A DNA stretch of 64,000 nucleotides from a virus. Lineage: Duplodnaviria; Heunggongvirae; Uroviricota; Caudoviricetes. The stretch spans positions 1-64,000 of IMG/VR virus record IMGVR_UViG_2974578479_000001; one strand, written 5' to 3'. The position numbers and the translations under genes were made by a program. This document shows positions 10,931-26,122 of the stretch, one piece after another (the stretch's first letter is position 1; each line of letters opens with the position of its first letter). The notes under the pieces are model-generated. The model searched no databases, was not told the DNA's origin, and saw only the letters and a program-made list of their open reading frames with translations.

Positions 10931-10958
10931 CTTATATCGAAGCACAGGAGATAATCAA

Positions 10959-11563: not shown

Positions 11564-11574
11564 TTATTACCAAA

Positions 11575-11609: not shown

Positions 11610-11639
11610 ATCACATCAACCACACAAGAGGCACTAAAA

Positions 11640-11960: not shown

Positions 11961-11972
11961 CAGTAACCGATT

Positions 11973-11997
11973 GGGGGCGTTATATGCCCCCTTAATT
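11973..11997 (+). terminator. terminator-like hairpin gggggc-gttatat-gccccc
   Basis: 6-bp GC stem; weak T-tract. Confidence 0.45.
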
Positions 11998-12012
11998 AAG
12001 TGAGTACACTAC

Positions 12013-12255
12013 ATGAAAAAGGTTCAAGTAGATAGTACACAATTACGAATACATTTCAAGGCACAAACAAAAGTACTTGACAAAGCTATTCGTGTTGTGA
12101 AAGAATACAACACTGGTAAAGTAAGGCCAAGACGATTAGGGTGTGGATTGTTTTCAGTACTGGATGTTTCCCGTAACGAGCGAATCGTTATTAAAGATAA
12201 CACACTGAATCTAATGACGCATGAACAATATAATAAATTCGTTGAACGCCGTTGA
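12013..12255 (+). CDS. hypothetical protein (80 aa)
   Basis: SD ttaagtgagtac. Confidence 0.5.
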   Translation: MKKVQVDSTQLRIHFKAQTKVLDKAIRVVKEYNTGKVRPRRLGCGLFSVLDVSRNERIVIKDNTLNLMTHEQYNKFVERR

Positions 12256-12307
12256 CATAATCCCCTAAATACGTATATAATAACTTATACGATTAGGGGA
12301 TTTTATT

Positions 12308-12775
12308 ATGCCTGGAAAATTCAGATCCAAGAGTGGTGCTACACTAGCAGGACACTCTGATAAATGGAGCGATGAGAATCGTTCAGCAAGTAGCCATGAA
12401 GCGGGGCAAGGCAGTAAAGGCAGTCGCAATCAAGGTACTGGCATTCAAGGAAAAGTTAACGCAATGCCATCACAGGGAATAGATACTTCCCGCATGGATA
12501 AATCAGAAAAGCTAAAGTACTTTAATTCATTAGGGTTACTACAGCCAGAACAAAAGCAAGAACTTTCTATAAAAACATGGCCTGATACTTTACGTAAAGT
12601 ATTCAAAGACGAGCCAGTATATATCAAAGACATTACCGCCGCTTTAAAATCAGTACCGCAAGCAAACTACCCGCAAGCAGTACAAGCAGGATTCAACGCC
12701 ACACAAGAGACAATGAATCAAACCGATGATGTTTATGACATATACGCCGCTATCATGCAAGCCATTCAGGGTTAA
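12308..12775 (+). CDS. hypothetical protein, disordered Ser/Gly/Gln-rich N-terminus (155 aa)
   Basis: ORF after hairpin aatcccctaa...ttaggggatt. Confidence 0.5.
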   Translation: MPGKFRSKSGATLAGHSDKWSDENRSASSHEAGQGSKGSRNQGTGIQGKVNAMPSQGIDTSRMDKSEKLKYFNSLGLLQPEQKQELSIKTWPDTLRKVFKDEPVYIKDITAALKSVPQANYPQAVQAGFNATQETMNQTDDVYDIYAAIMQAIQG

Positions 12776-12780
12776 AAAAA

Positions 12781-12800
12781 GGGTTGACTTAGGTCAGCCC
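12781..12800 (+). promoter_or_regulatory. PeSL-like stem-loop promoter (gggttgacttaggtcagccc)
   Basis: TTGACT inside the stem. Confidence 0.5.
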
Positions 12801-12841
12801 TTTTGCTATTGTATCAGTACTTAAACAAAAGGAACAAAATC

Positions 12842-13192
12842 ATGAGAAAACTTCTTTTAGCTACATTACTCTTTGCTGGTGCTGTAAACGCACAAACTTA
12901 TGTTTGCAACACTTACACAGTATATCAGGGTGTTGGGAATGGTCAGTACAATAAAATTGATAACAGTACGCCATCATTCAGTACTATCATCGAAACATCA
13001 CGCGATGTAATTAAAGTGTATGTTAAAGGTGAAGAAAGTACTTATACCGAATTCTGGAAAGATTACAATGATTATCGTAATGATACCGGATTGATTAAAC
13101 AGTCTGGTAATGAATTCGAAATCAAAACAGCGATTGAAGATCCTACAGGAACCGCATACATTCCAGTAAAAATAGAATACCATTGCAAATAA
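12842..13192 (+). CDS. secreted/periplasmic hypothetical protein (signal peptide MRKLLLATLLFAGAVNA)
   Basis: classical signal peptide with AxA cleavage motif. Confidence 0.55.
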   Translation: MRKLLLATLLFAGAVNAQTYVCNTYTVYQGVGNGQYNKIDNSTPSFSTIIETSRDVIKVYVKGEESTYTEFWKDYNDYRNDTGLIKQSGNEFEIKTAIEDPTGTAYIPVKIEYHCK

Positions 13193-13202
13193 TTAAAATA
13201 AA

Positions 13203-13221
13203 GACTTGACTCGTTCAGGTC
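13203..13221 (+). promoter_or_regulatory. PeSL-like stem-loop promoter
   Basis: gacttgactcgttcaggtc plus T-tract; TATACT downstream. Confidence 0.45.
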
Positions 13222-13448
13222 TTTTTTTGTATACTATATTCAATCCAGCGAAATGGACTAACCCTATAGGGTACATAAATGTATCTATTAGATATAGTAC
13301 TGGATGTTTGTACAGTACTAAAAGAATTTAAAAATAAGATGAAAAAGTCCTTGCATTAAAATACAGATTTGCTATTATAACTACATCGAGAGGCGGCAAT
13401 CTCTTGGTAAACAAACTTTAAAACATTTTAATTGAGAGAGAAATAAAC

Positions 13449-13781
13449 ATGGCTAACTTCAACGCACAGAACAAAGTAGACCGTACTCCTGCTCACACTT
13501 TAGAAGTAGGTACAATCGTAGTACACAACTACACTACATTCTGTCATGGTACTATTACTGGCTATGCTCCAGATGGTGCTTACCATGTTTATTTCCCTAC
13601 TGATATGGCACCTAACATGCCTAAGTATCAAGCTAACACAGTAGAAGCCACGCAAAACCGTACCCGTACATTGACGGCTGGATCTGGTTTCTTTGTAAGC
13701 AAACACAAGTCATTCGCGTCTATTCGTGAACTGCAACGCAAGTACCGCCAGAAAGGTGCTGCACTGGAAATGTTAGCATAA
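13449..13781 (+). CDS. hypothetical protein, paralog of the 7029 gene
   Basis: GTIVVHNYTTFCHGTI versus GTVVVHNYGEFTHGTI; identical leader. Confidence 0.6.
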   Translation: MANFNAQNKVDRTPAHTLEVGTIVVHNYTTFCHGTITGYAPDGAYHVYFPTDMAPNMPKYQANTVEATQNRTRTLTAGSGFFVSKHKSFASIRELQRKYRQKGAALEMLA

Positions 13782-13792
13782 CAAATTAAAAA

Positions 13793-13814
13793 GGGGTTGA
13801 CAATGTTCAGCCCC
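13793..13814 (+). promoter_or_regulatory. PeSL-like stem-loop promoter (ggggttgacaatgttcagcccc)
   Basis: TTGACA-17-TATAGT. Confidence 0.5.
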
Positions 13815-13853
13815 TTTGTTATAGTATCAGTACTTAAACGAGAGGATAACAAT

Positions 13854-14075
13854 ATGTTTACTGCATTAGAATCTTTGGTTAGAGAAGAAGTTTCGGAAGA
13901 AGAAGTAAAAGCAGGTTTAAAACTGCGTGATCTTTGCATCCAGAATGATCTGGATATTCCCGAAGTACTAATGACGTTGCATTACTTCAATGGTATTGAA
14001 CCAAAATTAATCATTGACAAAGTATCAGCGTTAAACACGCCGTTAATTGAAAATGCAATGCATGTACTGCATTAA
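13854..14075 (+). CDS. hypothetical protein (73 aa)
   Basis: SD cgagaggataac. Confidence 0.45.
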   Translation: MFTALESLVREEVSEEEVKAGLKLRDLCIQNDLDIPEVLMTLHYFNGIEPKLIIDKVSALNTPLIENAMHVLH

Positions 14076-14197
14076 TGAAAACTATTATTAATGCAATCAT
14101 TCTATCATTTATAATGATACTAGTACAACGTCAAACATCCTTCCCACTGCTTTGTATTATAGCAGTACTGACAGGATTGTTAATTTATAAATGGTAA
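14075..14197 (+). CDS. small membrane peptide (40 aa)
   Basis: TAATG coupling; hydrophobic. Confidence 0.3.
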   Translation: MKTIINAIILSFIMILVQRQTSFPLLCIIAVLTGLLIYKW

Positions 14198-14203
14198 AAA
14201 TAA

Positions 14204-14224
14204 AGGCTTGACACGTTCAAGCCT
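14204..14224 (+). promoter_or_regulatory. PeSL-like stem-loop promoter (aggcttgacacgttcaagcct)
   Basis: TTGACA-17-TATAGT. Confidence 0.5.
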
Positions 14225-14361
14225 TTTTGTTATAGTACTATCACTCCAGCGAAATGGACTAACCCTATAGGGTGTAGTACTGTATCTATAATAAAATAAT
14301 TAAAATTTAAATGAAAAAAGTACTTGCATTAAGTTTTAAGTACTGTATAATGTTTTACATA

Positions 14362-14383
14362 GGGTAAGCAATACCGCTTACCC
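14362..14383 (+). promoter_or_regulatory. 5' leader hairpin gggtaagc-AATACC-gcttaccc upstream of SD ttaagtgagag
   Basis: same loop with compensatory stem changes at 19083-19102. Confidence 0.5.
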
Positions 14384-14404
14384 ATATTAAGTGAGAGAAT
14401 CAAA

Positions 14405-14986
14405 ATGAAATTTACTGAACTGAATGCTGAACAACAAGCTAGAGCAATTGAAGTACATCGTGATATTAATTTGGATGATAATAGTATCTGGTGCGACTTC
14501 ATTCAAGAGCGTTTTCATTCAGAACTAAATGAGTTTGGTTTTGAAGAAGTCGAATCACGTTATAGTGGTTTTTGTTCACAAGGTGACGGGGCAAGCTTTA
14601 CCGCTGATAACGTTGATATTGAAAAGTTCTTGCGTAAAACGAAACGCTGGACACACTATCGTTCATTACATGAATTCATTCGCATTAATGATATTACATG
14701 TATAGTTGTACGTGATAACGGTTCGCGTTATGTTCACTACAACACAACCGAAGCCACGTTAAGCGGTAACTGGTATATAGATCTTAGCCCAAAACAAGAA
14801 TCATTGTATACTGAATTAGAAAAAGAGATCGATGATTTTATAACGGAGAAAGGTCAAGAATATTATTCAGAACTTGACAAGCATTATTATCATCTATTGG
14901 AAGATGAACAAGTCAAGGAAACAATAATAGCTAATGAAATGGAATTTGAAGAAGATCCACGCGAAAGCTGCGTAACTTATATCTAA
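14405..14986 (+). CDS. hypothetical protein (193 aa)
   Basis: cassette plus hairpin leader. Confidence 0.55.
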   Translation: MKFTELNAEQQARAIEVHRDINLDDNSIWCDFIQERFHSELNEFGFEEVESRYSGFCSQGDGASFTADNVDIEKFLRKTKRWTHYRSLHEFIRINDITCIVVRDNGSRYVHYNTTEATLSGNWYIDLSPKQESLYTELEKEIDDFITEKGQEYYSELDKHYYHLLEDEQVKETIIANEMEFEEDPRESCVTYI

Positions 14987-14997
14987 ATTCAAAATAG

Positions 14998-15018
14998 GGA
15001 TTGACAAGTTCAATCCCT
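14998..15018 (+). promoter_or_regulatory. PeSL-like stem-loop promoter (gggattgacaagttcaatccc)
   Basis: TTGACA inside the stem. Confidence 0.5.
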
Positions 15019-15051
15019 TTTGATACTCTATCAGTACTGAAACGGAGTTAT

Positions 15052-15174
15052 ATGAAAAAGAAATATATAGTTCTGTACAGTACTTTAAACGAAGCTTACA
15101 TTCAAGGCCAAAAAATGGAACGCATTGTTCAAGTACTGATTGTTATTTTATTCATTTTGTACTGGATACTGTAA
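15052..15174 (+). CDS. small membrane peptide (40 aa)
   Basis: SD aacggagttat; hydrophobic C-terminus. Confidence 0.3.
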   Translation: MKKKYIVLYSTLNEAYIQGQKMERIVQVLIVILFILYWIL

Positions 15175-15324
15175 TGAGAATAATCAAGTACTACAATGGT
15201 GTAAGTATTAAAATGATTGATACCGATCATTTTGTAGTACAGAAAGGCCGTATAAAAATTACTTGCAAACGTGCCGTAATTGCATTATACTATTTCTATC
15301 AACTAATCATTAAGTGAGAAGAAA

Positions 15325-15660
15325 ATGAGAAAACCAAACGTAGAATTACTTTGCGATTCACATCATGGCGTTTACATTCCGCAAATTATGATCCATCGTC
15401 TTAAAGACAATGGTTGGCGTAATATTCCACTTAATGCCGTGGAAGTACTTTCGCATCCAGATAATGAAGATTATTGGGATACATGGAATCAAGTACTTGA
15501 CAATGCTGAATGGCATGATGAATACACTACACAAGTCTTTAAGCTACATCATGATGGTGACTTGTGGGCGTATTGTGAAGCGTCAATGTCGCCTACAGAG
15601 TATCATAACATGTTCGGTGAATATCCTGAATGGTTCAATGAAGAACTCGAAGAAGCTTAA
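15325..15660 (+). CDS. hypothetical protein (111 aa)
   Basis: SD ttaagtgagaagaaa. Confidence 0.5.
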   Translation: MRKPNVELLCDSHHGVYIPQIMIHRLKDNGWRNIPLNAVEVLSHPDNEDYWDTWNQVLDNAEWHDEYTTQVFKLHHDGDLWAYCEASMSPTEYHNMFGEYPEWFNEELEEA

Positions 15661-15674
15661 AAGAATTACAAAAA

Positions 15675-15696
15675 GTACTTGACTACGGTCAGGTAC
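15675..15696 (+). promoter_or_regulatory. PeSL-like stem-loop promoter (gtacttgac-tacg-gtcaggtac)
   Basis: perfect 9-bp stem; TTGACT-17-TATAGT. Confidence 0.5.
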
Positions 15697-15873
15697 TTTG
15701 TTATAGTTATATTACTCCAGCGAAATGGACTAACCCTATAGGGTGCAGTACTGTACCTATAATAAAAATAATTAAAATTCAAATGAAAAAGTCCTTGCAT
15801 TAGAATATCAGTACTGTATAATCTTTTACATAGACAGGAGATAGTCTCTTGTCAAAGCAAAGGAATTACAATC

Positions 15874-16221
15874 ATGATTAGCATCCAATCTACTCTTAAT
15901 GACCTGATCGCACATCGTGAACGCCTGTTGAATGAATCCATCAAACATGCGTCAACTATTGGTTATGTGTATATTAGACCATTTAACTTAGGCTTGCTGG
16001 TGGAACAATTACCCGAAGGTGTACAAGTCGGGCCAGCGATGGGCGATGAACTCCCTACTATCTTCTCTGAACGTATGGCTAATGCCAATCTTTCTCTTGT
16101 AAAGAGTATTGCAAAAGAGCCAGAAGTCAAATTTGTTTCTATCCAAAAATATATTTCAGATTCACTTGAAAGTACTGAAAACACTATCAAGATGATTCAA
16201 TCATTACAACCAGAAATTTAA
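15874..16221 (+). CDS. hypothetical protein (115 aa)
   Basis: leader hairpin gacaggaga-tag-tctcttgtc. Confidence 0.5.
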   Translation: MISIQSTLNDLIAHRERLLNESIKHASTIGYVYIRPFNLGLLVEQLPEGVQVGPAMGDELPTIFSERMANANLSLVKSIAKEPEVKFVSIQKYISDSLESTENTIKMIQSLQPEI

Positions 16222-16230
16222 TTAAAAATA

Positions 16231-16251
16231 GGGGTTGACGAGAGTCAGCCC
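16231..16251 (+). promoter_or_regulatory. PeSL-like stem-loop promoter (ggggttgacgagagtcagccc)
   Basis: TTGACG-18-TATAAT. Confidence 0.5.
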
Positions 16252-16438
16252 TTTTTGCTATAATAATTCCAATGAAGCGAAATTCACTAACCCTATAGGG
16301 TGCGGAAGTGTATCTATATCTTTTAGTACTGTATATCTGTACAGCAAAAATAAATTAAAAATAAGATGAAAAACAGCTTGCAATGTAATGCTGGTGGATG
16401 TATTATATCTATATCGAAACAGCAACGGGGTACAAGAA

Positions 16439-16678
16439 ATGGCTAATAAAGAATTTGAATTTAAAGTTAGAAAATGGTCAGATACTAATGCTAGACCGTT
16501 TGATGTAGTACTGTTGGACTATCTCAAAAACAATCAGCATTATCAACCTAACGTTGAATTCAGTACTGAAGCCTTAGCCAATCAACATTTGGTTTCGTTG
16601 CAAAATTCAGTACTTAACAATCCTGATAGTGTTAACTTTATTCGTGATCATTGGCCTGTTGATGGTGGCATCGAATAA
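16439..16678 (+). CDS. hypothetical protein (79 aa)
   Basis: tatatcgaaac leader; SD. Confidence 0.45.
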   Translation: MANKEFEFKVRKWSDTNARPFDVVLLDYLKNNQHYQPNVEFSTEALANQHLVSLQNSVLNNPDSVNFIRDHWPVDGGIE

Positions 16679-16761
16679 AAATTTAAACGTAAAAAGTACT
16701 TGACTACATCAGTTGAGTACTTTAAAATAGAATCTTAATCAACGCAATAGGAAACGAAATC

Positions 16762-17655
16762 ATGAAAATGTACAAAGGTATCGCAGGTAAAGCAATCAAA
16801 GAAAACCGTCCACTGCTAAGATCAGAACTGGAACTGGTTGTTCCTTCTATCTTTTCAAGTACTGGACACGAATCACGTTCAGCACGGTTCGCACCTGTTG
16901 CAACAATTGACGTTGTTGACCGCTTAGCAAAGGAAGGTTATCAACCATTCTTTGCGATTCAGTCAAATGTACGTGACGAATCTAAACGTGAATTTACTAA
17001 ACATATGCTGCGTTTCCGTCAGCATGATGGCAAAACATCCGGCGAATCTAATGAGATCATTCTCGTTAACGCCAACGATGGCACAAGTGCCTATCAATTG
17101 ATGGCTGGTCAATTCCGTTTCGTTTGTGCTAATGGTCTAGTTATGGGCAATATGAAGCATAACACAAAGATCTATCACAAAGGTAACAACATCATGGATG
17201 ACGTTATCGAGGGCGTTTACACTGTAGTAAAAGACTTTGATAACATCGAACGTTACAAACATGAAATGCAACGTATCCAGCTTAATGATGTTGAGCGTAA
17301 GACATTCGCCACCGCTGGCTACCTCATGAAAGAAGGTTTGCCAGAAAGTGGTTCACTGGATGACGCTGTTTATAACCCATTACAGTTGTTATCACGCAAT
17401 GGCCTGAACAGCCTTGACCAGTACGATAACAGCTTATACAGTACTTTTAACACTGTACAGCAGCACTTAATTAACGGCGGTCAACGCTCATTCATGGAAG
17501 ATCGTAACGGTCGCACCCGCCGCCGTTCAAGCCGTGGAGTTACTAATATCAATAAGAACATTGACATTAATAGTAACTTATGGCAACTCGCTACTGCACT
17601 GGTAGAAAAGAATACTAAGGTTGTGCATGATATTGTTGACGCACAATTATCATAA
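16762..17655 (+). CDS. hypothetical protein (297 aa), possibly of the phage/plasmid DUF932 type; higher GC
   Basis: long ORF with SD aggaaacg; family assignment from memory only. Confidence 0.55.
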   Translation: MKMYKGIAGKAIKENRPLLRSELELVVPSIFSSTGHESRSARFAPVATIDVVDRLAKEGYQPFFAIQSNVRDESKREFTKHMLRFRQHDGKTSGESNEIILVNANDGTSAYQLMAGQFRFVCANGLVMGNMKHNTKIYHKGNNIMDDVIEGVYTVVKDFDNIERYKHEMQRIQLNDVERKTFATAGYLMKEGLPESGSLDDAVYNPLQLLSRNGLNSLDQYDNSLYSTFNTVQQHLINGGQRSFMEDRNGRTRRRSSRGVTNINKNIDINSNLWQLATALVEKNTKVVHDIVDAQLS

Positions 17656-17679
17656 TAATTAAGTACTAAAATCATGTAA

Positions 17680-17701
17680 GGGGTTGACACTTGTCAGCCC
17701 C
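17680..17701 (+). promoter_or_regulatory. PeSL-like stem-loop promoter (ggggttgacacttgtcagcccc)
   Basis: near-identical copy at 18098-18119. Confidence 0.55.
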
Positions 17702-17743
17702 TTTTGCTATACTTCTTTTACACCAACCGGAAAGGAAAAACAA

Positions 17744-18091
17744 ATGTTAGATGTATATGTAAGATCAGATTTAGTTTCAAATGGTCGCAATGAGTTCGGT
17801 ACTGAACAAGAAAAAACAGAGTACTATATCATTGCTGAATCATCAAGCGGTCAACGTATTAGATTAGATAGTGTATCAATTGTTAATAGAGAATACACTG
17901 ATTCACAATGTACTGAGTACTTAGAACGTATCGTTACTAAAATTAATAATCATTTAGCTGGTGGCGGAAAATTAAATCTAGATTACTGGTACGAAATTGA
18001 TCCTTGCTATGGTTCACAACGTTACATTGATTTAGATAGTACTGGTTACTTCTATAAGCGTGAGAAACGCGAAGATTCTTATAAAAATTAA
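17744..18091 (+). CDS. hypothetical protein (115 aa)
   Basis: SD ggaaaggaaaaac. Confidence 0.5.
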   Translation: MLDVYVRSDLVSNGRNEFGTEQEKTEYYIIAESSSGQRIRLDSVSIVNREYTDSQCTEYLERIVTKINNHLAGGGKLNLDYWYEIDPCYGSQRYIDLDSTGYFYKREKREDSYKN

Positions 18092-18097
18092 TACTAA

Positions 18098-18119
18098 GGG
18101 GTTGACAATAGTCAGCCCC
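18098..18119 (+). promoter_or_regulatory. PeSL-like stem-loop promoter (ggggttgacaatagtcagcccc)
   Basis: TTGACA-18-TATACT. Confidence 0.55.
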
Positions 18120-18158
18120 TTTTGATATACTTCTTTTACACCAACAAAGGAAAGTATT

Positions 18159-18356
18159 ATGACTAGACAAGAAATAATTAAAGCGGCTAACAAAGTACTG
18201 TCATACAACCATCTCGAAATGATGGAAGCTATGGAAAGAGTACTAGGCACGTTTGGCGAAGATAATAAAGATGAATTCGCCGCTGTCTATGATGAAGTAC
18301 AGGATATTTTATATCCTCATGGTACTGGTGAAGATGCAGTATACTGCGAAAATTAA
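18159..18356 (+). CDS. hypothetical protein (65 aa)
   Basis: SD aaaggaaag. Confidence 0.45.
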   Translation: MTRQEIIKAANKVLSYNHLEMMEAMERVLGTFGEDNKDEFAAVYDEVQDILYPHGTGEDAVYCEN

Positions 18357-18359
18357 TAT

Positions 18360-18388
18360 TTGACAACCGCTGTCAGTACTGATATACT
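18360..18388 (+). promoter_or_regulatory. sigma70-like promoter TTGACA-17-TATACT overlapping hairpin tgtcagtactga...tactgacag
   Basis: read directly. Confidence 0.5.
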
Positions 18389-18417
18389 GACAGCATATTA
18401 AACGAGAGGATACAATC

Positions 18418-18597
18418 ATGGTACAAGTAGATATGACTGAATTGCGTAAACGCTGGTATGATCTGGCACGTGCGGGTACTGCGATCACTGGTGATAACAG
18501 AACGCTATTCAATACACTGGATGGCTGGCAGCGTCAAGAACTAAAGAATGCATATGTTCAGGGCATGACTGATGAAGTTCAGACATGGGATGAATAA
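18418..18597 (+). CDS. small hypothetical protein (59 aa), high GC
   Basis: SD cgagaggatac; missed by the 60-aa cutoff; the minus-strand ORFs listed here are shadows. Confidence 0.45.
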   Translation: MVQVDMTELRKRWYDLARAGTAITGDNRTLFNTLDGWQRQELKNAYVQGMTDEVQTWDE

Positions 18598-18784
18598 TTA
18601 AAAAGAAAGGCTTGACTTCGGTTGAGCCTTTTGTTATAGTACTATCAATGCAGCGAAATGCACTAACCCTATAGGGTGCCAAGATCCGCCCGTAAAATAT
18701 ATTAAAATTCAAATGAAAAAGTACTTGACTTATATCTACTGAAATTGTATTATGTATCTATTGAAAGCAAACGAGGGCAATACC

Positions 18785-19057
18785 ATGAGAGTTACTACAC
18801 TGATTAAGAAGCTGTTCGGTAAAGATTCAATCTCTGACTACATGGAAGTACTGGATGATGATGAAAAGAAATCAGTACTTGAGTACTACTCTATTCAAAT
18901 GGATGAAGATGCAAGCGAACCAGATTACTTTGTTAAGTACTGGCAGGATGGATTATATACTGTCAAAGATATTAATGGTAATGTTATCGTGCATACATAT
19001 AATGTGCGACTGCTAAAAGAAAAGTTAAAAGTACTTGCAAACAAGTCTAAGGTTTAG
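18785..19057 (+). CDS. hypothetical protein (90 aa)
   Basis: SD acgagggcaatacc. Confidence 0.45.
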   Translation: MRVTTLIKKLFGKDSISDYMEVLDDDEKKSVLEYYSIQMDEDASEPDYFVKYWQDGLYTVKDINGNVIVHTYNVRLLKEKLKVLANKSKV

Positions 19058-19082
19058 TATTATATATTCATCGGGAGGCAAT

Positions 19083-19102
19083 ACCGCTTCCCTTCTTAAT
19101 CA
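19083..19102 (+). promoter_or_regulatory. 5' leader hairpin gggaggc-AATACC-gcttccc (covaries with 14362-14383)
   Basis: identical loop; compensatory stem changes. Confidence 0.5.
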
Positions 19103-19113
19103 GGAGCTTCACC

Positions 19114-19515
19114 ATGAACTTCACTACTAACTCTTTCAATGATGTACTGGTACTGGCTAAAACCTTCGGCGTTGCTGCACTGGATTATGCAGTACAGAAC
19201 AACACTATTAACATTGCATTCCCTGCACTGGTCAGAGAATGTAAGAGATGGGCAACTCGTCAAATCATTGAATTGCAGAATGTCAATGATGGCAATGTAG
19301 AGTACAGTATTGATGCTGTATTCAAGGCAGAGTTAGTACTGGATCAGTACGATACTAACCTGAATGACATTACTGTTGTTCGTACAGGGTTCGGTGCTTA
19401 CACTAAGCCAGTGCGTCAGGCAATGCAGGACGGCGACATTAACGCGGATACATTAGAGTATATCCTTAATGATGTACGCCAGCGTAATGAAGCACGTAAG
19501 GTGCTCGGCCTCTAA
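19114..19515 (+). CDS. hypothetical protein (133 aa), higher GC
   Basis: SD aggagcttcacc. Confidence 0.5.
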   Translation: MNFTTNSFNDVLVLAKTFGVAALDYAVQNNTINIAFPALVRECKRWATRQIIELQNVNDGNVEYSIDAVFKAELVLDQYDTNLNDITVVRTGFGAYTKPVRQAMQDGDINADTLEYILNDVRQRNEARKVLGL

Positions 19516-19584
19516 CAAAGTACTTGACAATACATCAAGCCACTGGCATACTGTCGGTGGCTTTGTCTATTAGGAGATACCAAC

Positions 19585-19791
19585 ATGTTTAATGTAGTAG
19601 GTTGTTTAGGCGTTACCATCGGTCAGGCTGATAGCATTGATACAGCCATCACTCTAGTACAGTCACAGATAACAGTGAGCGATAAGAAGCGTACAGCTAT
19701 GCGTAACGCACTGCAACGCCTCAAGGTAGGCCAGCAGTATCAGATAGACTACGGCGGCACTGGCTGCACCGTACAGCGTGTAGAAGGGTAA
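19585..19791 (+). CDS. hypothetical protein (68 aa)
   Basis: promoter aaagtacttgaca at ~19520; SD ttaggagatacc. Confidence 0.45.
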   Translation: MFNVVGCLGVTIGQADSIDTAITLVQSQITVSDKKRTAMRNALQRLKVGQQYQIDYGGTGCTVQRVEG

Positions 19792-20007
19792 GCAGTACTA
19801 TGTTATACCCATTTTTATATTAATTCAAAAAATATCTTATACAAAATAAAAGTACTTGACTTTTAAAATGTATAAGGTATTGGTTAACTTTTCTGTATAT
19901 AACGTTGAAGGACTATGCAAATTTTTTTGCTTACTAAAGGCCAGTAATGCTTAGCACCCCTATAATCGGGGTATAGGTATTACTGGCTATACTATTTGGA
20001 GTAAATT

Positions 20008-20577
20008 ATGGAATATGAAAAGATAAAAGAAATGTTTTTAAAAGTTTGGCCTATACTAATTCCACTCATGCCCCCATTAAATCAGTACAGTACTCCTATT
20101 GATAATGAATACTTCGCGGAGTACATAACCTTCTCCCCGAATCATATCTTCAGGATATACGGTAATGGTGGTACTAAGTTATCTGACATACTATTTGAAA
20201 TCAGTTACAATACTGAAACGAAATACTTCAGTACTTTTACTGAGGACACTATACGTATTGCACACTGGAAGAAAGATTTACCTCGTTTCTACGCCCTTCA
20301 TGATCCAGATAACTCTAAGGAGAATGGTCAGGGATATACTTTCATCCAGTACCCATGTGATACTGATTATTTCTTTCAGAGGATGACAGTACAAAATACG
20401 TTAGAATATGAAGAATATGAATTATGGGATACTGAAGTAATGGTTATGCAAGAAGTACTCTCTGATCATCCTGCATTAAGTATAGGTTTAGTACTACGTG
20501 ATGAGTATCTTACACCTGATGATGTAATTAAGATAGGCGTAGAGTTCTTTGAAAAGATGTGGGAAAATAAAAAATGA
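20008..20577 (+). CDS. paralog-array member 1 (motif DYFFQRMTVQ)
   Basis: 189 aa; SD atttggagtaaatt. Confidence 0.55.
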   Translation: MEYEKIKEMFLKVWPILIPLMPPLNQYSTPIDNEYFAEYITFSPNHIFRIYGNGGTKLSDILFEISYNTETKYFSTFTEDTIRIAHWKKDLPRFYALHDPDNSKENGQGYTFIQYPCDTDYFFQRMTVQNTLEYEEYELWDTEVMVMQEVLSDHPALSIGLVLRDEYLTPDDVIKIGVEFFEKMWENKK

Positions 20578-21233
20578 TTAAACTTATACAATTCGTTAAT
20601 GTATGTAAGTCATTAATAGAATGGCATAGTTTACGGACTTCCAACACATCCATTGTTATGAATGATGATAGAATACAATTAAGTACTGGTAATGAGTATC
20701 GTGTACTGTCAGGTGAATCTGGAGCTATTGCAACTAGGTTAGAATTTTATCTATCAGAATATAGACAGGATGTTACATTAGTCCGATTATCGAGACATAT
20801 GGATTTACACATAAAATTAAGAGATGATTATTATTTCTTAATGAATGAAGATAATCTTTTACAATTTGGCATACTCAAAGAAACTACTGGAGTATTGAGA
20901 AAGCTTGCTGAGTACCTTCCATTTCTCGATAAAGATACACCGTACAACCATGATACCTTAGAAGCTTTAGAGTTTCAGTACTTGACTAAGTACAGTATTA
21001 ATGAAGTACAAGCAATGATTGTTTATCATTTACTTCGAGAGTACAGGAAAGATTACCCAGCACATACATTAACTTCAAAGTACACTCCATCGTTAGCAAT
21101 TAATTTTAAAGTACTTGAGGAATGCACAGTACAAGAGTTGCTAGAGATGAACAATCATATACGGAATAAAATAGATGAACTTCAACTTCAAGTACTATCC
21201 AAAATTGAAAGAAATATTAAAACTAATGTCTAA
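20574..21233 (+). CDS. paralog-array member 2
   Basis: ATGA coupling; 219 aa; EALEFQYLT. Confidence 0.5.
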   Translation: MIKLIQFVNVCKSLIEWHSLRTSNTSIVMNDDRIQLSTGNEYRVLSGESGAIATRLEFYLSEYRQDVTLVRLSRHMDLHIKLRDDYYFLMNEDNLLQFGILKETTGVLRKLAEYLPFLDKDTPYNHDTLEALEFQYLTKYSINEVQAMIVYHLLREYRKDYPAHTLTSKYTPSLAINFKVLEECTVQELLEMNNHIRNKIDELQLQVLSKIERNIKTNV

Positions 21234-21774
21234 GTTCAATACTAACATTACGGATGATATAGAGTATCGTGATGATATATTATCAGTAAGATTGGTGAGA
21301 GTACGTGATGATCGTATGACATTTGATATACATGCAATTGGTTTTGATTATAATTATCCAGTACTTATCATGACGTGGTGTTATAATAACGATGTAGATA
21401 TTTTTTCTAGATTTTTCTACAGTACAGATACATTTATAAGTGCAGTTTATAGTACTACTAATATGAGCAAGTTCCATTATGAAGTTAATGAAAGTATTCA
21501 TGTAAAGAAGGTATGCAAGTTGGATTATCCTTTACGGGAAGAACAAGTGTTTCAGGAGTTGACTAGATTTAATTTACCGTCCGAAGAATCAATTACGACA
21601 TTCATGGATACATCTTATGAAGTACTGAATGGTAGTACTAAGTTTAGTTCTTTCTCTTTTCATCCACATAGTTTAGATGCAAAAAATGAAACAGAGATGG
21701 ATAATATGGTACAATCTATATTGGAAAGGTTAGAGAAGTTGTATCTTGAAAATGACGCAATTTTAAAAGACTAA
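21229..21774 (+). CDS. paralog-array member 3 (EQVFQELT)
   Basis: ATGtcTAA coupling with the upstream gene. Confidence 0.5.
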   Translation, partial: SKFNTNITDDIEYRDDILSVRLVRVRDDRMTFDIHAIGFDYNYPVLIMTWCYNNDVDIFSRFFYSTDTFISAVYSTTNMSKFHYEVNESIHVKKVCKLDYPLREEQVFQELTRFNLPSEESITTFMDTSYEVLNGSTKFSSFSFHPHSLDAKNETEMDNMVQSILERLEKLYLENDAILKD

Positions 21775-21893
21775 ATAAATGTTATCTTAAAAATTGTTGT
21801 ATAAAAAATAGTCAAAAAAATTTCCGCTTCTAATGATTGCTGTCAAGATAAAATGGCGGGGTCGAGGGGGCGTCGGGAGCGTGGGAAGTAATT

Positions 21894-22490
21894 ATGGAAT
21901 CGATGATAGTACTAAAAGATTTTTACGAAAAGTTTGCTGCACCGATAGCTGATGCTGGATTATTGAGTACTGCAAAGAACACCAAGACCTTAGAATGGGG
22001 AGGTCGAGTTAAGGGGTTAAGATATACATTTACCAGTACTGATTCTTATACAAGTGTTAAGTTAGTAGATGAAACTGATTATACCTTTGCATTAGATGCA
22101 GTATGTTATCGTGAACAAAACGGTGCTATCAATGCAACTCGTACATTTTTCACGAGTCCTACATGGACAGAGATATACACTGGTACAGGATTTAGTACTA
22201 CAAAAATTAATGTATGTCACCGAGATGAAAGTGAATTTCGTCGGGACATGAACTATCCGATATTAGAAGAAGAATACTTTCAGAATAGTACTAGGATTGA
22301 ATTAGAAGAAGAATCTTTCTATCAGTACTTCATGGGATTTGAACCAGCAGCTATAGAGTTATGTTTAAAATTCTCCCACGTTGATAATGGTGTAGAGTTA
22401 GCGAGGACAGTGCTAAATGATACTACTTTAATTAATAACATATTAATGCAATTGAATATTCTTATCATGACATATAAGAGACAAAAATGA
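21894..22490 (+). CDS. paralog-array member 4 (EEYFQNST)
   Basis: 198 aa; SD gggaagtaattatg. Confidence 0.5.
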   Translation: MESMIVLKDFYEKFAAPIADAGLLSTAKNTKTLEWGGRVKGLRYTFTSTDSYTSVKLVDETDYTFALDAVCYREQNGAINATRTFFTSPTWTEIYTGTGFSTTKINVCHRDESEFRRDMNYPILEEEYFQNSTRIELEEESFYQYFMGFEPAAIELCLKFSHVDNGVELARTVLNDTTLINNILMQLNILIMTYKRQK

Positions 22491-22999
22491 GTGAGAAGAT
22501 TTATAAACAGGCTAGAAAGTACTGTGATAAGTTTTTAAGATTACACAAAGTACTTTCTGGCGTACATGAGAAAATTAAAAAGAATTCGTGGAGAAATTCA
22601 CCCTTTAGTACTAATCGGTACATGGTAAATCTAGACAATAATAAGACGGGAATTATAATGAAAATGGCTAGGGGAAAATATAATTCTTATGAAGTACATT
22701 ATCATCTAGCACCATATACACACAGAGATTCACAGCGTAGAAATAATTTTTATGTTATTACGGATCATACTAAATTTATACATTGTAGTACTAAAACAGT
22801 TCAAGACTTACGTGATGTATCAGTTTATGATGAATGTTTAGCATTTCAATTAAGTACTGTATATACGGACAGTGAATTATTTGATTATTATTGTTGTTCG
22901 ATGTTACATACTGCGGGTTTTCGTGGAGCGTGTAGGACTAATGTTCATCATAGTACATGGAAAGCTTTATATCTACAAGCTTTAAGTATTGGTGGCTGA
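22487..22999 (+). CDS. paralog-array member 5 (CLAFQLST)
   Basis: ATGA coupling. Confidence 0.5.
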   Translation: MSEKIYKQARKYCDKFLRLHKVLSGVHEKIKKNSWRNSPFSTNRYMVNLDNNKTGIIMKMARGKYNSYEVHYHLAPYTHRDSQRRNNFYVITDHTKFIHCSTKTVQDLRDVSVYDECLAFQLSTVYTDSELFDYYCCSMLHTAGFRGACRTNVHHSTWKALYLQALSIGG

Positions 23000-23000
23000 T

Positions 23001-23588
23001 ATGCAAGAGTATAAAATTTTGACAGATATTGCTTCTGAACTATATAAGATTCGGAACAAAACAATAGAATATTCTGTATCTGATGGAATAGCTGCATCTT
23101 TATGGCCTGAGAGGAAGCCATTCACATCGTACACATTTAAAGTAAGTGGTCCATTAGAGACATATACATCTAAGTACTATAAATTTGTATTAAGCAGTAT
23201 GCACCATTCAGAAAACGCAGTTGCTTTTGCGGAGTTATGTACACTTGAGGTTTGTTTTGATACGGCTTGGTATATTAATAGTATCGATCATCACAGGGGT
23301 AGAATATCATTAAACAATGTTAACATGGATGTTTTATCCATATGTCATGATAGTACTGACAATTCTGCTATGATAGTACTTAGAGATGAAGTAATTACAG
23401 AAGAATGGTTATTTCAATTAATGACTAAGTTTGATATTCCATTTTATGAAGACGTATTAGTACTGAACAGTATAAGGACGGATTTATTTAAATTTCCATA
23501 TAATGTTAGTTTTTGTATAAGGTATTCAAAAGAACATTTACAGAATTTTTTGTTTAAGATTAAGGATTTTTTACATGACCAGAGCTGA
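23001..23588 (+). CDS. paralog-array member 6 (EEWLFQLMT)
   Basis: start uncertain (22989 or 23001). Confidence 0.5.
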   Translation: MQEYKILTDIASELYKIRNKTIEYSVSDGIAASLWPERKPFTSYTFKVSGPLETYTSKYYKFVLSSMHHSENAVAFAELCTLEVCFDTAWYINSIDHHRGRISLNNVNMDVLSICHDSTDNSAMIVLRDEVITEEWLFQLMTKFDIPFYEDVLVLNSIRTDLFKFPYNVSFCIRYSKEHLQNFLFKIKDFLHDQS

Positions 23589-24144
23589 ATTAATTCAGAG
23601 TAGTACTATGTATCGTCTTCTTGGTGCTTATAAAATCTTCAAAGAGAAGGAAAAAAAGTACAAGGGGAAGTTATATAATTTTACTTTATATGATTACAAC
23701 GATAGTGGTTATGATTTAGAATGTTCGCATCATGGATTATATATTTGGCCTAATGGTGAAGACAGAGATGATAATCAAATCTTTAGTATTGAATACTTGA
23801 AAGATGACCAATGGTGGGTTCAATCATTATTGAATGACTATGAGTTTTCTATTACTCCACGCGAGGCAGTTGAAATCAATGTTGGTGATCATTTAGACCT
23901 TGACAAAAGCAACCTATATGTGTATAATCATCAGGATGAAGAAGAATTATTTGAGGAATATCCAGAAGAATGGTTTTTTCAACAACTGACCGTACAGGAC
24001 ATAATTCCTTTTGAACAATTTAAAGAAGAAGTTAAGTTCTGTAAGAAAATACTTTCTCACGGTATAGATGAGTATGATAGAATCTTTATCTTTAATTTAG
24101 AGAAATTTAATATCAATCTGTTAGAAGGGTTTAAGGAAATATGA
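23575..24144 (+). CDS. paralog-array member 7 (EEWFFQQLTVQ)
   Basis: overlapping start. Confidence 0.5.
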   Translation: MTRAELIQSSTMYRLLGAYKIFKEKEKKYKGKLYNFTLYDYNDSGYDLECSHHGLYIWPNGEDRDDNQIFSIEYLKDDQWWVQSLLNDYEFSITPREAVEINVGDHLDLDKSNLYVYNHQDEEELFEEYPEEWFFQQLTVQDIIPFEQFKEEVKFCKKILSHGIDEYDRIFIFNLEKFNINLLEGFKEI

Positions 24145-24569
24145 TAGTTTTCCATGCTAGTACTGTTCAGATTACAAACTTTTACATTCCTTACGGTGGA
24201 TTACATTTAGGTGGTATGCACAGTGCTTTGGAATGTGCCTTACGGAAGGTCTATACAGGCCGTGAAGCTGGTATTGATGTGGATACGGTGTACATTCACC
24301 GTTGTTTTCTTAAAGCACTGAAGCCGTTTGAGGCTGATGATATGGGAAGTGATGCATCATGGAAGCGATTAAATCAGACATTAATAGCTACTGCTACAGA
24401 TTTCGATTGTATTAAATATACGAACAAGTACGAGGTTGACGTTGTTCCATCCTATTGTTTATTTGATGCGAGTTTAGTTGAAATCCTTGATTGTAGTACT
24501 ATGCATATGGATATGGCAGAAGATATATTACATGGGACATACACAGATGACTACCGGTACGAGTACTAA
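24141..24569 (+). CDS. array ORF (142 aa), motif not evident
   Basis: ATGA coupling. Confidence 0.45.
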   Translation: MIVFHASTVQITNFYIPYGGLHLGGMHSALECALRKVYTGREAGIDVDTVYIHRCFLKALKPFEADDMGSDASWKRLNQTLIATATDFDCIKYTNKYEVDVVPSYCLFDASLVEILDCSTMHMDMAEDILHGTYTDDYRYEY

Positions 24570-25122
24570 AGAAGTACTTTTAGATAAAGAGTTTCGAATT
24601 TCAATGAAGATGTTTGATTTCATGAAGAAGATAAATTTAATATTCATGAATGATTATAAAAATGAATTAGAAACTTCACACAGTATTAGTGTTGGTGATG
24701 ATACAAGTTATACGCTAAAAATGATCAAAGATAAGGCATTTTACATTACCAGAACACGCTCAGAATTTTATTCACAAATATTATTACATGTTGAATATGA
24801 ATCGTATTATACTGGAAGAAACTATTTTGGAGCAGGAAGAACGTACTTACATTTTTCACCACTATTGAATAGTGATTGTATAGTACAAGATAGTGCTTAT
24901 ATTTTGAAGTACCCATATGATTTTGATGAGGCGGCACATTTTCAGGCAATGACACAAAATCATATAACTATTGAAGAAAATTACATGTACGCATCTGAAT
25001 TAATGAAAGCAGTACATTCAGATTCATTTATTTGGGCTGAAATAGTTACTTCTGAAATTGAAGAAGATGAGTACGAGTATTTTGAGAAATTGATAAAATA
25101 TTTCAGGGATTCGATATGCTAA
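24547..25122 (+). CDS. paralog-array member (AAHFQAMTQN)
   Basis: start uncertain. Confidence 0.45.
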   Translation: MTTGTSTKEVLLDKEFRISMKMFDFMKKINLIFMNDYKNELETSHSISVGDDTSYTLKMIKDKAFYITRTRSEFYSQILLHVEYESYYTGRNYFGAGRTYLHFSPLLNSDCIVQDSAYILKYPYDFDEAAHFQAMTQNHITIEENYMYASELMKAVHSDSFIWAEIVTSEIEEDEYEYFEKLIKYFRDSIC

Positions 25123-25562
25123 ACATAATTGAAAACATTGATCCAATTAATTACATCATTCAGGATGTATTAAATAACATCAATGGATTAGAGTTAACTC
25201 CACGTAATAATTTTTATATTGGTGAAGGATACTCACTTGACATACAAGAAGTTCGTAAGAATTCGTATAAGTTAAAAGTACGAACAAATAATTTACAAGA
25301 TTTATGTAATATTGCGTTTGATAAGAAGAATCTTATTATTCGTTACAGTCCTGAGTTTTTCTTTGTACAAGAAGGTGCAGCGTTAAGCACGAACTTGTTT
25401 GAGGGACTGTTTAGTTTAGAGGAACTACCTAATGCGTTCAGGAATAATAGTACTGTATTCGGATTAGGTGTAGAATTTGATCATGCTACAATGATGGAAA
25501 CCATTGAACTGTGCCGTAGAATTCGTGATGATTTCTTGCGGAAAATTGCTACGCAAAAATAA
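25116..25562 (+). CDS. paralog-array member (PEFFFVQEGA)
   Basis: overlapping start. Confidence 0.5.
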   Translation: MLNIIENIDPINYIIQDVLNNINGLELTPRNNFYIGEGYSLDIQEVRKNSYKLKVRTNNLQDLCNIAFDKKNLIIRYSPEFFFVQEGAALSTNLFEGLFSLEELPNAFRNNSTVFGLGVEFDHATMMETIELCRRIRDDFLRKIATQK

Positions 25563-25642
25563 AAGACACTCATGGATGAGTTATAAATACTTTTAGAGCA
25601 CTAAAAGATGTGCTAAAAATACAAGTTCAAGGGAGTGAACAC

Positions 25643-26122
25643 ATGAATAATCTTATTCAAAAAGACAGCGGGCCGATTGATGATGTGATCACTCAAGACG
25701 CTTTTGAAGTACATGGACTAATGTTTAATATTAAAGATATTGTGCAATGTCTGTTTTTGTGCAGTGCAACTATGCATGAATTTTTTAATAACCCAATGTG
25801 TAATTGTTTTGCTGTTACTATTAACAGTAATGATAAATGGGTTATGGCTACACCCATGACAATGAATACTGAATTCAATGAATGTGTAATGCGTAACAAC
25901 AAAGAAAAAACTCCACAATCTGAAGTAGAAAAACTACGTAACACGTATACTAAACCTGATGAGAAACACATACTTATGTTTTTATCGAAGGGATATGTTA
26001 TGGATAATTTTACTGTACAAGAGAGTTATCATGATTTTCTCTTTACAGAAGGTGAACCACATGTTATGATTACTGCGGAAGACATTGAGAGTCTAACATT
26101 AAAAAATCCTTACTTGGAGTAA
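25643..26122 (+). CDS. paralog-array member (DNFTVQESY)
   Basis: SD gggagtga. Confidence 0.5.
   Translation: MNNLIQKDSGPIDDVITQDAFEVHGLMFNIKDIVQCLFLCSATMHEFFNNPMCNCFAVTINSNDKWVMATPMTMNTEFNECVMRNNKEKTPQSEVEKLRNTYTKPDEKHILMFLSKGYVMDNFTVQESYHDFLFTEGEPHVMITAEDIESLTLKNPYLE

Follow-up and report, generated by a model that had tools for sequence, protein, structure and literature searches.

Large virulent phages such as SPO1 and T5 carry host-takeover modules (the SPO1 host-takeover module and the T5 pre-early region) at or next to their long terminal repeats, and we know of no module of this type that is one expanded paralog family. Terminal multigene families occur in large eukaryotic DNA viruses, among them MGF360/505 of ASFV and the Bcl-2-like or ankyrin families of poxviruses. 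In T4, ModA and ModB are adjacent paralogs, and the R-S-E clade includes Alt and Mod. The early ADP-ribosyltransferases of T4 (Alt, ModA and ModB) and the early gene clusters surrounding them have been described (PMC7824862).

The locus described here lies in a stretch of 64,000 nucleotides (the window, analysed as a whole) that is the left end of the genome of the Serratia jumbo phage BF. It recalls T4 in that a T4-related myovirus carries a predicted ADP-ribosyltransferase (ART)-fold enzyme in what would be a pre-replicative cluster of small uncharacterised genes; however, the duplicated genes of BF are an unrelated family rather than the ART, and the ART-fold protein is far smaller than Alt or Mod (142 aa), with fold neighbours of the H-Y-E and RES/MbcT types and no Pfam match. 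With SPO1 and T5 it shares many small, strongly promoted terminal-repeat genes, with the BF array probably starting right beyond the repeat on the same strand. The ASFV and poxvirus families are likewise near-end tandem arrays of lineage-variable copy number in which fold and a short signature are kept while sequence falls to 10–20% identity, but they are evolutionarily unrelated to the BF array, whose orthology is largely 1:1 across genera.

Results

The array (positions 20008–26122) consists of 11 consecutive plus-strand CDS, BF_0043 to BF_0053, and at 8 of the 10 gene junctions these overlap or lie 1 nt apart, in line with the consecutive, mostly overlapping ORFs that the earlier note on this DNA had seen; most of the genes are probably translationally coupled. 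The starts used are the ATG codons given in GenBank at 23001 (BF_0048), 24547 (BF_0051) and 25643 (BF_0053); translation probably does not begin at the longest-ORF starts 22989 (TTG), 24478 (TTG) and 25610 (GTG). The genes are as follows.

BF_0043, 20008..20577, plus strand: family, ortholog group A; 189 aa; motif DYFFQRMTVQ
BF_0044, 20574..21233, plus strand: family, group B; 219 aa; motif EALEFQYLT; HMM E 2e-24
BF_0045, 21175..21774, plus strand: family, group C; 199 aa; motif EEQVFQELT
BF_0046, 21894..22490, plus strand: family, group D; 198 aa; motif EEEYFQNST
BF_0047, 22487..22999, plus strand: divergent family member, group E; 170 aa; pI 9.4; motif ECLAFQLST
BF_0048, 23001..23588, plus strand: family, group F; 195 aa; motif EEWLFQLMT; HMM E 8e-30
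BF_0049, 23575..24144, plus strand: family, group G; 189 aa; motif EEWFFQQLTVQ
BF_0050, 24141..24569, plus strand: non-family; 142 aa; predicted ART fold
BF_0051, 24547..25122, plus strand: family, group I; 191 aa; motif EAAHFQAMT
BF_0052, 25116..25562, plus strand: non-family; conserved 148-aa protein without assigned function
BF_0053, 25643..26122, plus strand: non-family; core 159-aa protein

We assign eight of the eleven genes (BF_0043 to BF_0049 and BF_0051) to one paralogous family of strongly diverged tandem duplicates. Its proteins have about 170–220 residues, are acidic except for the basic BF_0047, and carry, roughly two-thirds of the way along, the signature E-[EAD]-x-x-F-Q-x-[LSM]-T (hereafter the FQxLT family). 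Each of the eight proteins has a single FQx[LMS]T, at relative positions 0.61–0.72; elsewhere in the window the string turns up in only 2 of 112 other plus-strand ORFs and 0 of 60 minus-strand ORFs. Of 20,000 residue shuffles, none placed it in more than two of the 11 proteins. An iterative HMM search converged at 65 members from ten phages, the full signature being present in 60 of them and an FQ or FM core in all 65, and in a 34-sequence family alignment the F is invariant and the Q and T are nearly so. BLASTP gave only weak links between ortholog groups, the best pairs within BF being BF_0045–BF_0046 (1.5e-4) and BF_0043–BF_0049 (1e-3), and BF_0045 cross-matched the PHROG of BF_0046. Profile comparison by hhalign linked groups C and D (97%, E 2e-10, 136 columns), X and B (96%, 91 columns), A and G (92%, 97 columns) and D and I (88%, 102 columns), and placed group F with X (77%), I (70%), C (54%) and G (51%). 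The divergent BF_0047 matched a family profile from which group E had been left out (87.8%, E 3e-6, 44 columns), was, of the 183 window ORFs, the top non-training match of the family HMM and joined the family at iteration 2 of the iterative search.

BF_0050, BF_0052 and BF_0053 lack the signature, score about 0 with the family HMM and reach at most 1.1% by hhalign against the family profile. The earlier claim of at least 11 paralogs thus stands for eight genes and fails for these three; the FQx[LMS]T strings it quoted are borne out in eight proteins, and its PEFFFVQEGA (BF_0052) and DNFTVQESY (BF_0053) are not the motif. In the all-against-all hhalign comparison that it had proposed, similarity runs far beyond the motif (91–136 columns in the best pairs), so a likeness confined to the short motif, which it had named as the outcome that would tell against it, is not what was found. 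BF_0052 (72–89% identity across genera) and BF_0053 (90–95% in Eneladusvirus and Mimasvirus, about 54% in Asteriusvirus and Munch-like phages) are judged to be highly conserved genes unrelated to the FQxLT family, and tblastn with BF_0053 found matches in 72 phage records.

The AF2 model of BF_0043, the sole family member modelled, has a pLDDT of 90.5 and runs from an N-terminal helix through a sheet of about eight beta-strands, a short and then a long helix and one further strand to a C-terminal helix. The signature sits in the short helix right after the sheet (residues 119–128), where F (i), L/M (i+3) and T (i+4) fall on one face of the helix; this face is most likely a buried core element rather than an active site. 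Foldseek matched this model to independently predicted BFVD models (E 9e-9 to 6e-6, TM 0.42–0.66, 12–18% identity) that agree in length with the group C/D and G paralogs, and to one RaK2 protein; in the structure prediction that the earlier note had called for, BF_0050 stands apart with an ART fold. No convincing fold relative of the BF_0043 model was found in the PDB, and the family fold is possibly new. Its structural neighbours Atp11, Ivy and TipC2 have in common a beta-sheet platform packed with helices. Atp11 is a chaperone, Ivy a lysozyme inhibitor and TipC2 an immunity protein, and all three work by binding other proteins.

BF_0050 is confidently modelled with the ART split beta-sheet fold and stands outside the FQxLT family. 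Its fold neighbours are proteins of the H-Y-E and RES/MbcT types (diphtheria toxin, PARPs, ParT), whereas it had no Pfam match at E ≤ 1, no NCBIfam match and no PDB match by protein or by profile sequence search. Invariant among 23 homologs are H5 (in FHAST), GGLH22xGG, S28, Y93xN95 and E98xD100; H5 on strand 1 and E98 (in NKYEV) are compatible with an H-x-E arrangement, with a tentative mapping to the canonical positions. The minimal ART-fold proteins (the anti-CRISPR AcrF11, the rifampin ART Arr, and the RES, ParT and MbcT toxins) share 3–14% identity with BF_0050, which differs from them in its own invariant set (H5, GGLHxGG, S28, YxN, ExD). The gene is single-copy and at a fixed position within the array in 10 of 10 related phages, and in BF it overlaps its neighbours by 4 nt upstream and 23 nt downstream.

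The layout of several family genes, the ART gene, one further family gene, BF_0052 and BF_0053 recurs in the ten related jumbo phages examined, a family member lying directly downstream of the ART gene in 9 of 10 (CBB lacks it). The block is a conserved cassette of Rak2-like jumbo phages (Eneladusvirus, Mimasvirus, Asteriusvirus, Munch-like phages and RaK2), with a family copy number from 6 (CBB) through 8 (BF) to at least 12 per genome. The BF paralogs mostly have 1:1 syntenic orthologs in other genera, with some lineage-specific loss and presence/absence variation, so the duplications are best dated as ancient rather than as recent bursts. Family orthologs fall to 25–35% identity between genera (neighbouring non-family genes, 58–94%), and the fastest-diverging member, BF_0051, shares 24% with its fHe-Yen9-04 counterpart. 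Omega is 0.20–0.42 for the family against a flanking-gene median of about 0.14, and recent changes (9 synonymous, 9 nonsynonymous) show no nonsynonymous excess; the family diverges about twice as fast as its neighbours, a moderate elevation, under purifying selection. Where the earlier note inferred repeated duplication and rapid divergence, the eight genes do show tandem duplication and strong divergence, but the events are old and the rate is only moderately elevated. An arms-race signature (omega > 1, or rapid lineage-specific turnover) was not found in the family, and the 1:1 orthology across genera would fit conserved, perhaps housekeeping-like roles better than host-specific ones.

The non-coding elements associated with the array are listed below.

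19792..20007, plus strand: upstream conserved non-coding region; about 70% identity, five phages of two genera
21775..21893, plus strand: intergenic gap 1; A-rich element then G-rich leader; 73% mean identity, five phages
25563..25642, plus strand: intergenic gap 2; small hairpin then invariant TATAAATA; 81% identity, five phages

The upstream region is better conserved than the family CDSs and contains the conserved block GCTTACTAAAGGCCAGTAATGCTTAGC, a hairpin at about 19934–19990 (dG −34.8 kcal/mol, z −4.4) and, at 19849–19860, the final occurrence of the recurrent early −35 element AAAGTACTTGAC, a 12-mer with 16 copies against 0.47 expected. No −10 element lies 16–18 nt from this last copy and two intergenic regions that are conserved between genera lie inside the array, one of them with TATAAATA, so a single promoter at about 19850, as had been proposed, is not upheld. 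Nor is the block extremely AT-rich, its GC content being 32–34%, against about 34% for the window and 29–36% for the following 25 kb. Gap 1 is possibly an internal promoter or a regulatory RNA, and fHe-Yen9-03 has an annotated promoter at the corresponding position. In gap 2, TATAAATA (25582–25589, just ahead of BF_0053) is a T4-late-promoter-like octamer observed twice in the window against 12.4 expected. The CBB record gives a repeat_region at 1..22456, from which the terminal repeat of BF would end at about 19951; this boundary is taken from CBB alone, as the left end appears only once in the BF record. The cassette would thus begin about 56 nt past the point matching the end of the CBB long terminal repeat, and the region of promoter-per-gene early cassettes appears to lie immediately upstream of it.

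Discussion

The virion proteome tables of CBB do not list the products of CBB_53–61, the CBB orthologs; the virion MS table of the near-identical Erwinia phages (Eneladusvirus) carries no locus tags and is therefore uninformative on virion presence, and non-virion status is taken from CBB. This absence, together with the position beyond the repeat and the probable translational coupling, leads us to read the FQxLT proteins as intracellular and pre-replicative, the position of the array being what points to early timing. Most likely they are non-virion binding proteins for host takeover or anti-defence, and because an ART-like enzyme lies among them, the block probably serves manipulation of the host cell. 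One could envision that each paralog has its own host (or phage) macromolecule as a target and binds it stoichiometrically, through variable surfaces of sheet and helix, while the embedded ART would act as a separate enzymatic effector, probably used like Alt, ModA and ModB of T4. We consider it about an even chance that this explanation as a whole, with the paralogs as pre-replicative host-interaction binders and the ART as a separate effector, is right. The missing arms-race signature and the 1:1 orthology across genera count against it. No array protein matched a characterised anti-defence protein in sequence or structure, and the likeness to counter-defence or host-range families drawn in the earlier note would be an analogy.

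The paralogs could instead be partners of the ART, namely interchangeable substrate adaptors, regulators or inhibitors that dock through the FQxLT helix, so that one minimal enzyme would be steered to several targets or restrained. The fixed position of the ART gene in all ten phages, with overlapping junctions and a family member next downstream in nine, fits this arrangement, as does the restriction of family-wide conservation to one short helix, which would be expected if all paralogs docked on one partner. However, CBB has six paralogs only and none after the ART gene, paralog number varies from 6 to at least 12 while the ART is always single, and a hydrophobic face at i, i+3 and i+4 with an acidic N-cap is what a buried core helix would show; we regard a partnership as unlikely, if the least unlikely of the alternatives. 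Slightly less credence goes to a broader alternative, that the ART is targeted or gated by the paralogs via the shared helix or that the paralogs are new-fold stoichiometric inhibitors, each of a different bacterial defence or housekeeping complex. Somewhat more improbable again would be a family that helps to build the very large virion, as assembly chaperones or morphogenesis factors, which would account for 1:1 orthologs kept across genera under purifying selection and for the late-type TATAAATA inside the block. That element, however, precedes only BF_0053, a non-family gene, the array lies amid early-type elements and distant from the structural genes, and family orthologs have 25–35% identity between genera as compared with 58–94% for neighbouring non-family genes.

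That all eleven ORFs are paralogs, with BF_0050, BF_0052 and BF_0053 diverged past recognition, might be argued from their similar sizes, shared strand and tight packing and from the motif-like strings in BF_0052 and BF_0053. We consider this very improbable, because these three are the most conserved genes of the block (58–95% identity), the opposite of extreme divergence, and because they score so low against the family; for BF_0050 it is refuted by an ART fold of different topology with its own invariant residues. A negligible chance is left to a motif shared by accident or composition among unrelated ORFs, for which the weak pairwise BLASTP within BF alone could be cited; this was rejected on the shuffle and background tests, the profile matches over about 100–136 columns, the Foldseek results and the presence of the motif in 65 members.

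The FQxLT family, for which no relative was found in Pfam, the PDB or NCBIfam, is previously undescribed and lineage-restricted: searches gave 32 family matches among 5.8 billion proteins and 23 cluster representatives among 1.84 billion. PHROGs divides it into separate groups and the BLAST-based paralog table of the CBB paper missed it, so that 8 to at least 12 adjacent "orphans" per Rak2-group genome now reduce to one family, in a cassette probably at the boundary between terminal repeat and unique region. An unannotated ART-fold protein at a fixed position in the array offers a concrete experimental handle, and if the paralogs are host-targeting binders, the locus would be a defined place in which to seek new anti-defence or host-shutoff proteins. 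Related phages are considered for therapy and biocontrol of E. coli, Klebsiella, Salmonella and Erwinia. The genomes of Rak2-group jumbo phages encode mostly hypothetical proteins.

Results

At unchanged coordinates, the 6.1 kb block under study matches Serratia phage BF (KY630187, Eneladusvirus, 357 kb) with 100% identity, which makes the window the leftmost 64 kb of the BF genome. GenBank annotates every product from BF_0043 to BF_0053 as "hypothetical protein", and none of the 11 could be given a function from Pfam, NCBIfam or PHROGs. The description in an earlier note of consecutive, mostly overlapping ORFs was borne out, with all of them on the plus strand and 8 of 10 junctions overlapping or 1 nt apart; the longest-ORF starts used there are TTG, TTG and GTG at three genes for which GenBank gives ATG, at 23001, 24547 and 25643. 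The features that matter here are as follows.

20008-26122, plus strand: block of eleven ORFs, BF_0043 to BF_0053
21775-21893: true intergenic gap 1, 119 bp
24141-24569, plus strand: BF_0050, a 142-aa protein with a predicted ADP-ribosyltransferase (ART) fold
25563-25642: true intergenic gap 2, 80 bp

The block had also been called extremely AT-rich, but its GC content (32–34%) is close to that of the next 25 kb (29–36%) and to the window average (~34%), so this is not a distinguishing feature; GC is somewhat higher solely in the 3 kb upstream (37–41%).

At least eleven paralogs sharing one motif had been proposed. The motif FQx[LMS]T occurs once in each of eight block proteins (BF_0043 to BF_0049 and BF_0051) at relative position 0.61–0.72, against 2 of 112 other plus-strand ORFs and 0 of 60 minus-strand ORFs in the window, and when the eleven proteins were shuffled 20,000 times, no shuffle had it in more than two of them. 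BF_0050 lacks the motif, and the strings cited for BF_0052 and BF_0053 are not instances of it. BLASTP among the BF proteins alone is weak (BF_0045 to BF_0046, 1.5e-4; BF_0043 to BF_0049, 1e-3), and PHROGs assigns no two of the proteins to one family, BF_0045 and BF_0046 alone cross-matching. We defined ortholog groups from the syntenic arrays of phages fHe-Yen9-04, fHe-Yen9-03, CBB, GAP32 and Kaldavass, and comparison of the group profiles with hhalign confirmed paralogy reaching well past the short motif: group A (BF_0043) matched G (BF_0049) at 92% over 97 columns, C (BF_0045) matched D (BF_0046) at 97% over 136, D matched I (BF_0051) at 88% over 102, X, a group missing from BF, matched B (BF_0044) at 96% over 91, and F (BF_0048) matched X, I, C and G at 51–77%.

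The initial match of BF_0047 was confined to the motif, yet this protein is the top non-training hit of the family HMM among 183 window ORFs. It enters in round 2 of an iterative HMM search with new members from Hallingskeid, Munch and PBECO4, with which it has the FQ-x-ST form of the motif in common, and it reaches 87.8% (E 3e-6, 44 columns) against a family profile that leaves out its own group. BF_0050, BF_0052 and BF_0053, the most conserved genes of the block (58–95% identity across genera), have HMM scores near zero and hhalign probabilities of at most 1.1%, widened profiles included. As judged from these profiles, the paralogs in the array number eight, not eleven. Across a family alignment of 34 sequences the F never varies, and conservation exceeds 90% at Q and T; 65 members from ten phages give the signature E(53/60)-[EAD]-x-x-F-Q(55/60)-x-[LSM]-T(59/60)-x-x-[DN]-[IL]-P-x-E-E, with a median relative position of 0.67, and the five members without the motif T retain FQ.

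The structure model of BF_0043 (38 sequences; pLDDT 90.5, pTM 0.87) has a helix at 3-20, eight strands within 27-114, the motif-carrying helix at 119-128, and then a helix at 134-150, a strand at 158-163 and a helix at 170-188. Because F123, M/L126 and T127 fall at i, i+3 and i+4 on one helical face, with acidic residues at the helix N-terminus, the motif would mark a core helix that is buried and N-capped, rather than an active site. Foldseek matches of this model in BFVD were limited to uncharacterised proteins of related jumbo phages. From their lengths we assigned these to paralog groups C/D and G (12–18% identity, E 9e-9 to 6e-6), and a protein of RaK2 is also among the matches; at the level of predicted structure, they back the family independently. 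Its distribution is very narrow, with 32 matches among 5.8 billion proteins and 23 representatives among 1.84 billion, and a PDB sequence search with the family profile gave no match. One member is annotated on a 371 kb contig of a Salmonella enterica serovar Braenderup assembly; the contig is presumably the genome of a jumbo phage that the isolate carries or that was assembled together with it.

Recognition sequences of TEV/3C-type proteases resemble E-x-x-Y-F-Q, and E-x-x-Y-F-Q-x can be read in several members, such as EEEYFQN of BF_0046 (22266-22286). Since the motif sits in a confidently predicted helix, the resemblance is probably coincidental; moreover, Y occupies P3 in only 13 of 60 members. 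A reading of the motif as the "STS" element of an ART was likewise rejected, conservation being limited to the T and the R or ExE partners being absent.

For BF_0050 itself, the residues invariant across 23 homologs are H5 (in FHAST), GGLH22xGG, S28, D67, W74, Y93xN95, E98xD100 and S104. Its confident model (pLDDT 90.2) predicts an ART fold, in which, on a putative residue mapping, H5 and E98 fit an H-x-E active site. No curated sequence model detects the protein (Pfam, NCBIfam, and the PDB by sequence and by profile), and the accessible portion of an NAD/ADPr survey names phage BF only for another locus. About 210 nt upstream of the gene, inside BF_0049, lies a perfect 12/12 sigma-70 consensus (TTGACA-17-TATAAT, 23900-23928), which could be chance or an internal promoter.

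With BF_0053 as anchor (orthologs in 72 phage records) and the arrays of Munch, PBECO4, XbC2 and Hallingskeid added, the same layout was found in 10 of 10 phages: [family]n, ART, (family), a BF_0052-like gene, 0-2 genes, a BF_0053-like gene and a gene of ~290 aa. Family copies detected were six in CBB, seven in fHe-Yen9-03 and eight each in BF, fHe-Yen9-04, GAP32, Kaldavass and XbC2. In Munch, Hallingskeid and PBECO4, three to five copies pass the threshold and many more ORFs of ~170–215 aa have sub-threshold scores and a correctly placed E..xFQxST, so that their arrays probably hold 10-12 or more members. Presence and absence vary between phages (see table). The duplications are therefore older than the genera and were followed by lineage-specific loss.

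Table. Ortholog groups of the family missing from individual phages
Group X: missing in BF
Group F: missing in Yersinia phages
Group G: missing in GAP32 and CBB
Group I: missing in CBB
Group E: missing in Kaldavass and XbC2

The array of XbC2, a Xanthomonas phage, corresponds gene for gene to that of Kaldavass, an Erwinia phage, the recorded hosts belonging to different orders; the match has E 1e-141 for the array-head genes, and sizes are the same and signature motifs near-identical for the eight family members.

Between BF and fHe-Yen9-04, family genes have dN of 0.11–0.78 and omega of 0.20–0.42 (median ~0.27) against a median omega of ~0.14 in flanking genes, all approximate values with dS near saturation. 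Between BF and the 99.5%-identical pEa_SNUABM_12, the family carries 9 synonymous and 9 nonsynonymous substitutions, not above the flanks and too few to show selection. Of the rapid divergence claimed for the array, elevation stands, but selection is purifying, and neither comparison gave an arms-race signal. BF_0051 (24547-25122), directly downstream of the ART gene, is 24% identical to its counterpart in same-genus fHe-Yen9-04 and 34% to that of GAP32, pointing to faster change here, or to a replacement. Elsewhere, BF_0031 (14405-14986) is a mosaic hot spot, with 135 substitutions and 12 nt of indels relative to pEa_SNUABM_12 where its neighbours have 0-5 differences, and its allele was probably replaced through recombination; a second cluster of differences (14 synonymous, 15 nonsynonymous) lies in BF_0076 (38429-39355, polynucleotide kinase/phosphatase).

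Transcription of the block from a single promoter at ~19850 was not supported. Strong sigma-70-like promoters are numerous in the upstream region (12-19.6 kb), where they often lie within hairpins, and the 12-mer AAAGTACTTGAC, present in 16 copies against 0.47 expected and nearly all in 1.4-19.9 kb (span 1473-19860), usually forms the -35 part of cassettes that combine promoter and hairpin ahead of small genes, and it ceases at the array start. Its last exact copy (19849-19860) is the proposed promoter, but no -10-like hexamer follows 16-18 nt past it in BF or relatives, and both internal gaps are conserved (gap 1, 73%; gap 2, 81%). Gap 2 contains an invariant TATAAATA (25582-25589), which is the T4 late-promoter consensus; it is the sole plus-strand copy in the window, where the sequence is depleted (2 observed, 12.4 +/- 3.9 expected). 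ATAAATA, contained in it, was proposed as a late promoter by the CBB authors (PMC5259590). A sole plus-strand copy in so conserved a gap suggests a late-type promoter within an otherwise early-looking region, probably one belonging to BF_0053. The gap 1 leader is strikingly rich in G (GGCGGGGTCGAGGGGGCGTCGGGAGCGTGGG, with four G-runs in BF) given a genome of 33% GC; the runs are less regular in GAP32 and CBB, and Rfam had no match for it or elsewhere in 19.5-26.4 kb.

The 216 bp before the array (19792-20007) are ~70% identical across two genera, above the identity of the family coding sequences. The annotated terminal repeat of CBB (22,456 bp) ends within the conserved block GGCCAGTAAYGCT/TAGC, and by homology the repeat of BF would end at ~19951, 56 nt before BF_0043; the BF record carries no right-end copy. 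Straddling the equivalent site is a strong hairpin (~19934-19990; dG -34.8 kcal/mol, z -4.4), but fHe-Yen9-04 and CBB do not conserve its 3' arm. The region could be a packaging/terminus signal or an injection-related signal.

Discussion

The array pointed out in the earlier note is real, although its number was overstated and the composition and promoter claims were partly wrong. Eight ancient tandem paralogs make up one lineage-restricted family; an ART-fold gene is embedded among them, and two conserved genes unrelated to them complete a cassette that Rak2-like jumbo phages share. The protein family is new but of a familiar kind, the multigene array of a large virus; the ART within it was unexpected. 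The literature yielded no prior description of the family and no transcriptome of Rak2-like phages, and these genes do not appear in the BLAST-based paralog table of the CBB paper.

We favor a reading in which the paralogs would be intracellular, pre-replicative host-interaction proteins that act through binding, with the ART probably a separate enzymatic effector. That they instead serve as adaptors or regulators of the ART seems unlikely to us, and a role as assembly chaperones somewhat less likely still. CBB_53-61 are absent from the CBB virion proteome tables; the virion mass-spectrometry table for Eneladusvirus consists of masses only.

Around the block, Pfam matched BF_0036 (16762-17655) to DUF932 (E 6e-35), BF_0054 (26126-26293) to DUF7230 (E 3.5e-17) and BF_0057 (27533-27928) to DUF6674 (E 7e-7). 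BF_0060 and BF_0061 (28681-30239) abut and encode proteins of 257 and 261 aa that fall in different PHROGs. With 52% and 43% identity to fHe-Yen9-04 they are fast-diverging, and they may represent a further pair of diverged paralogs.
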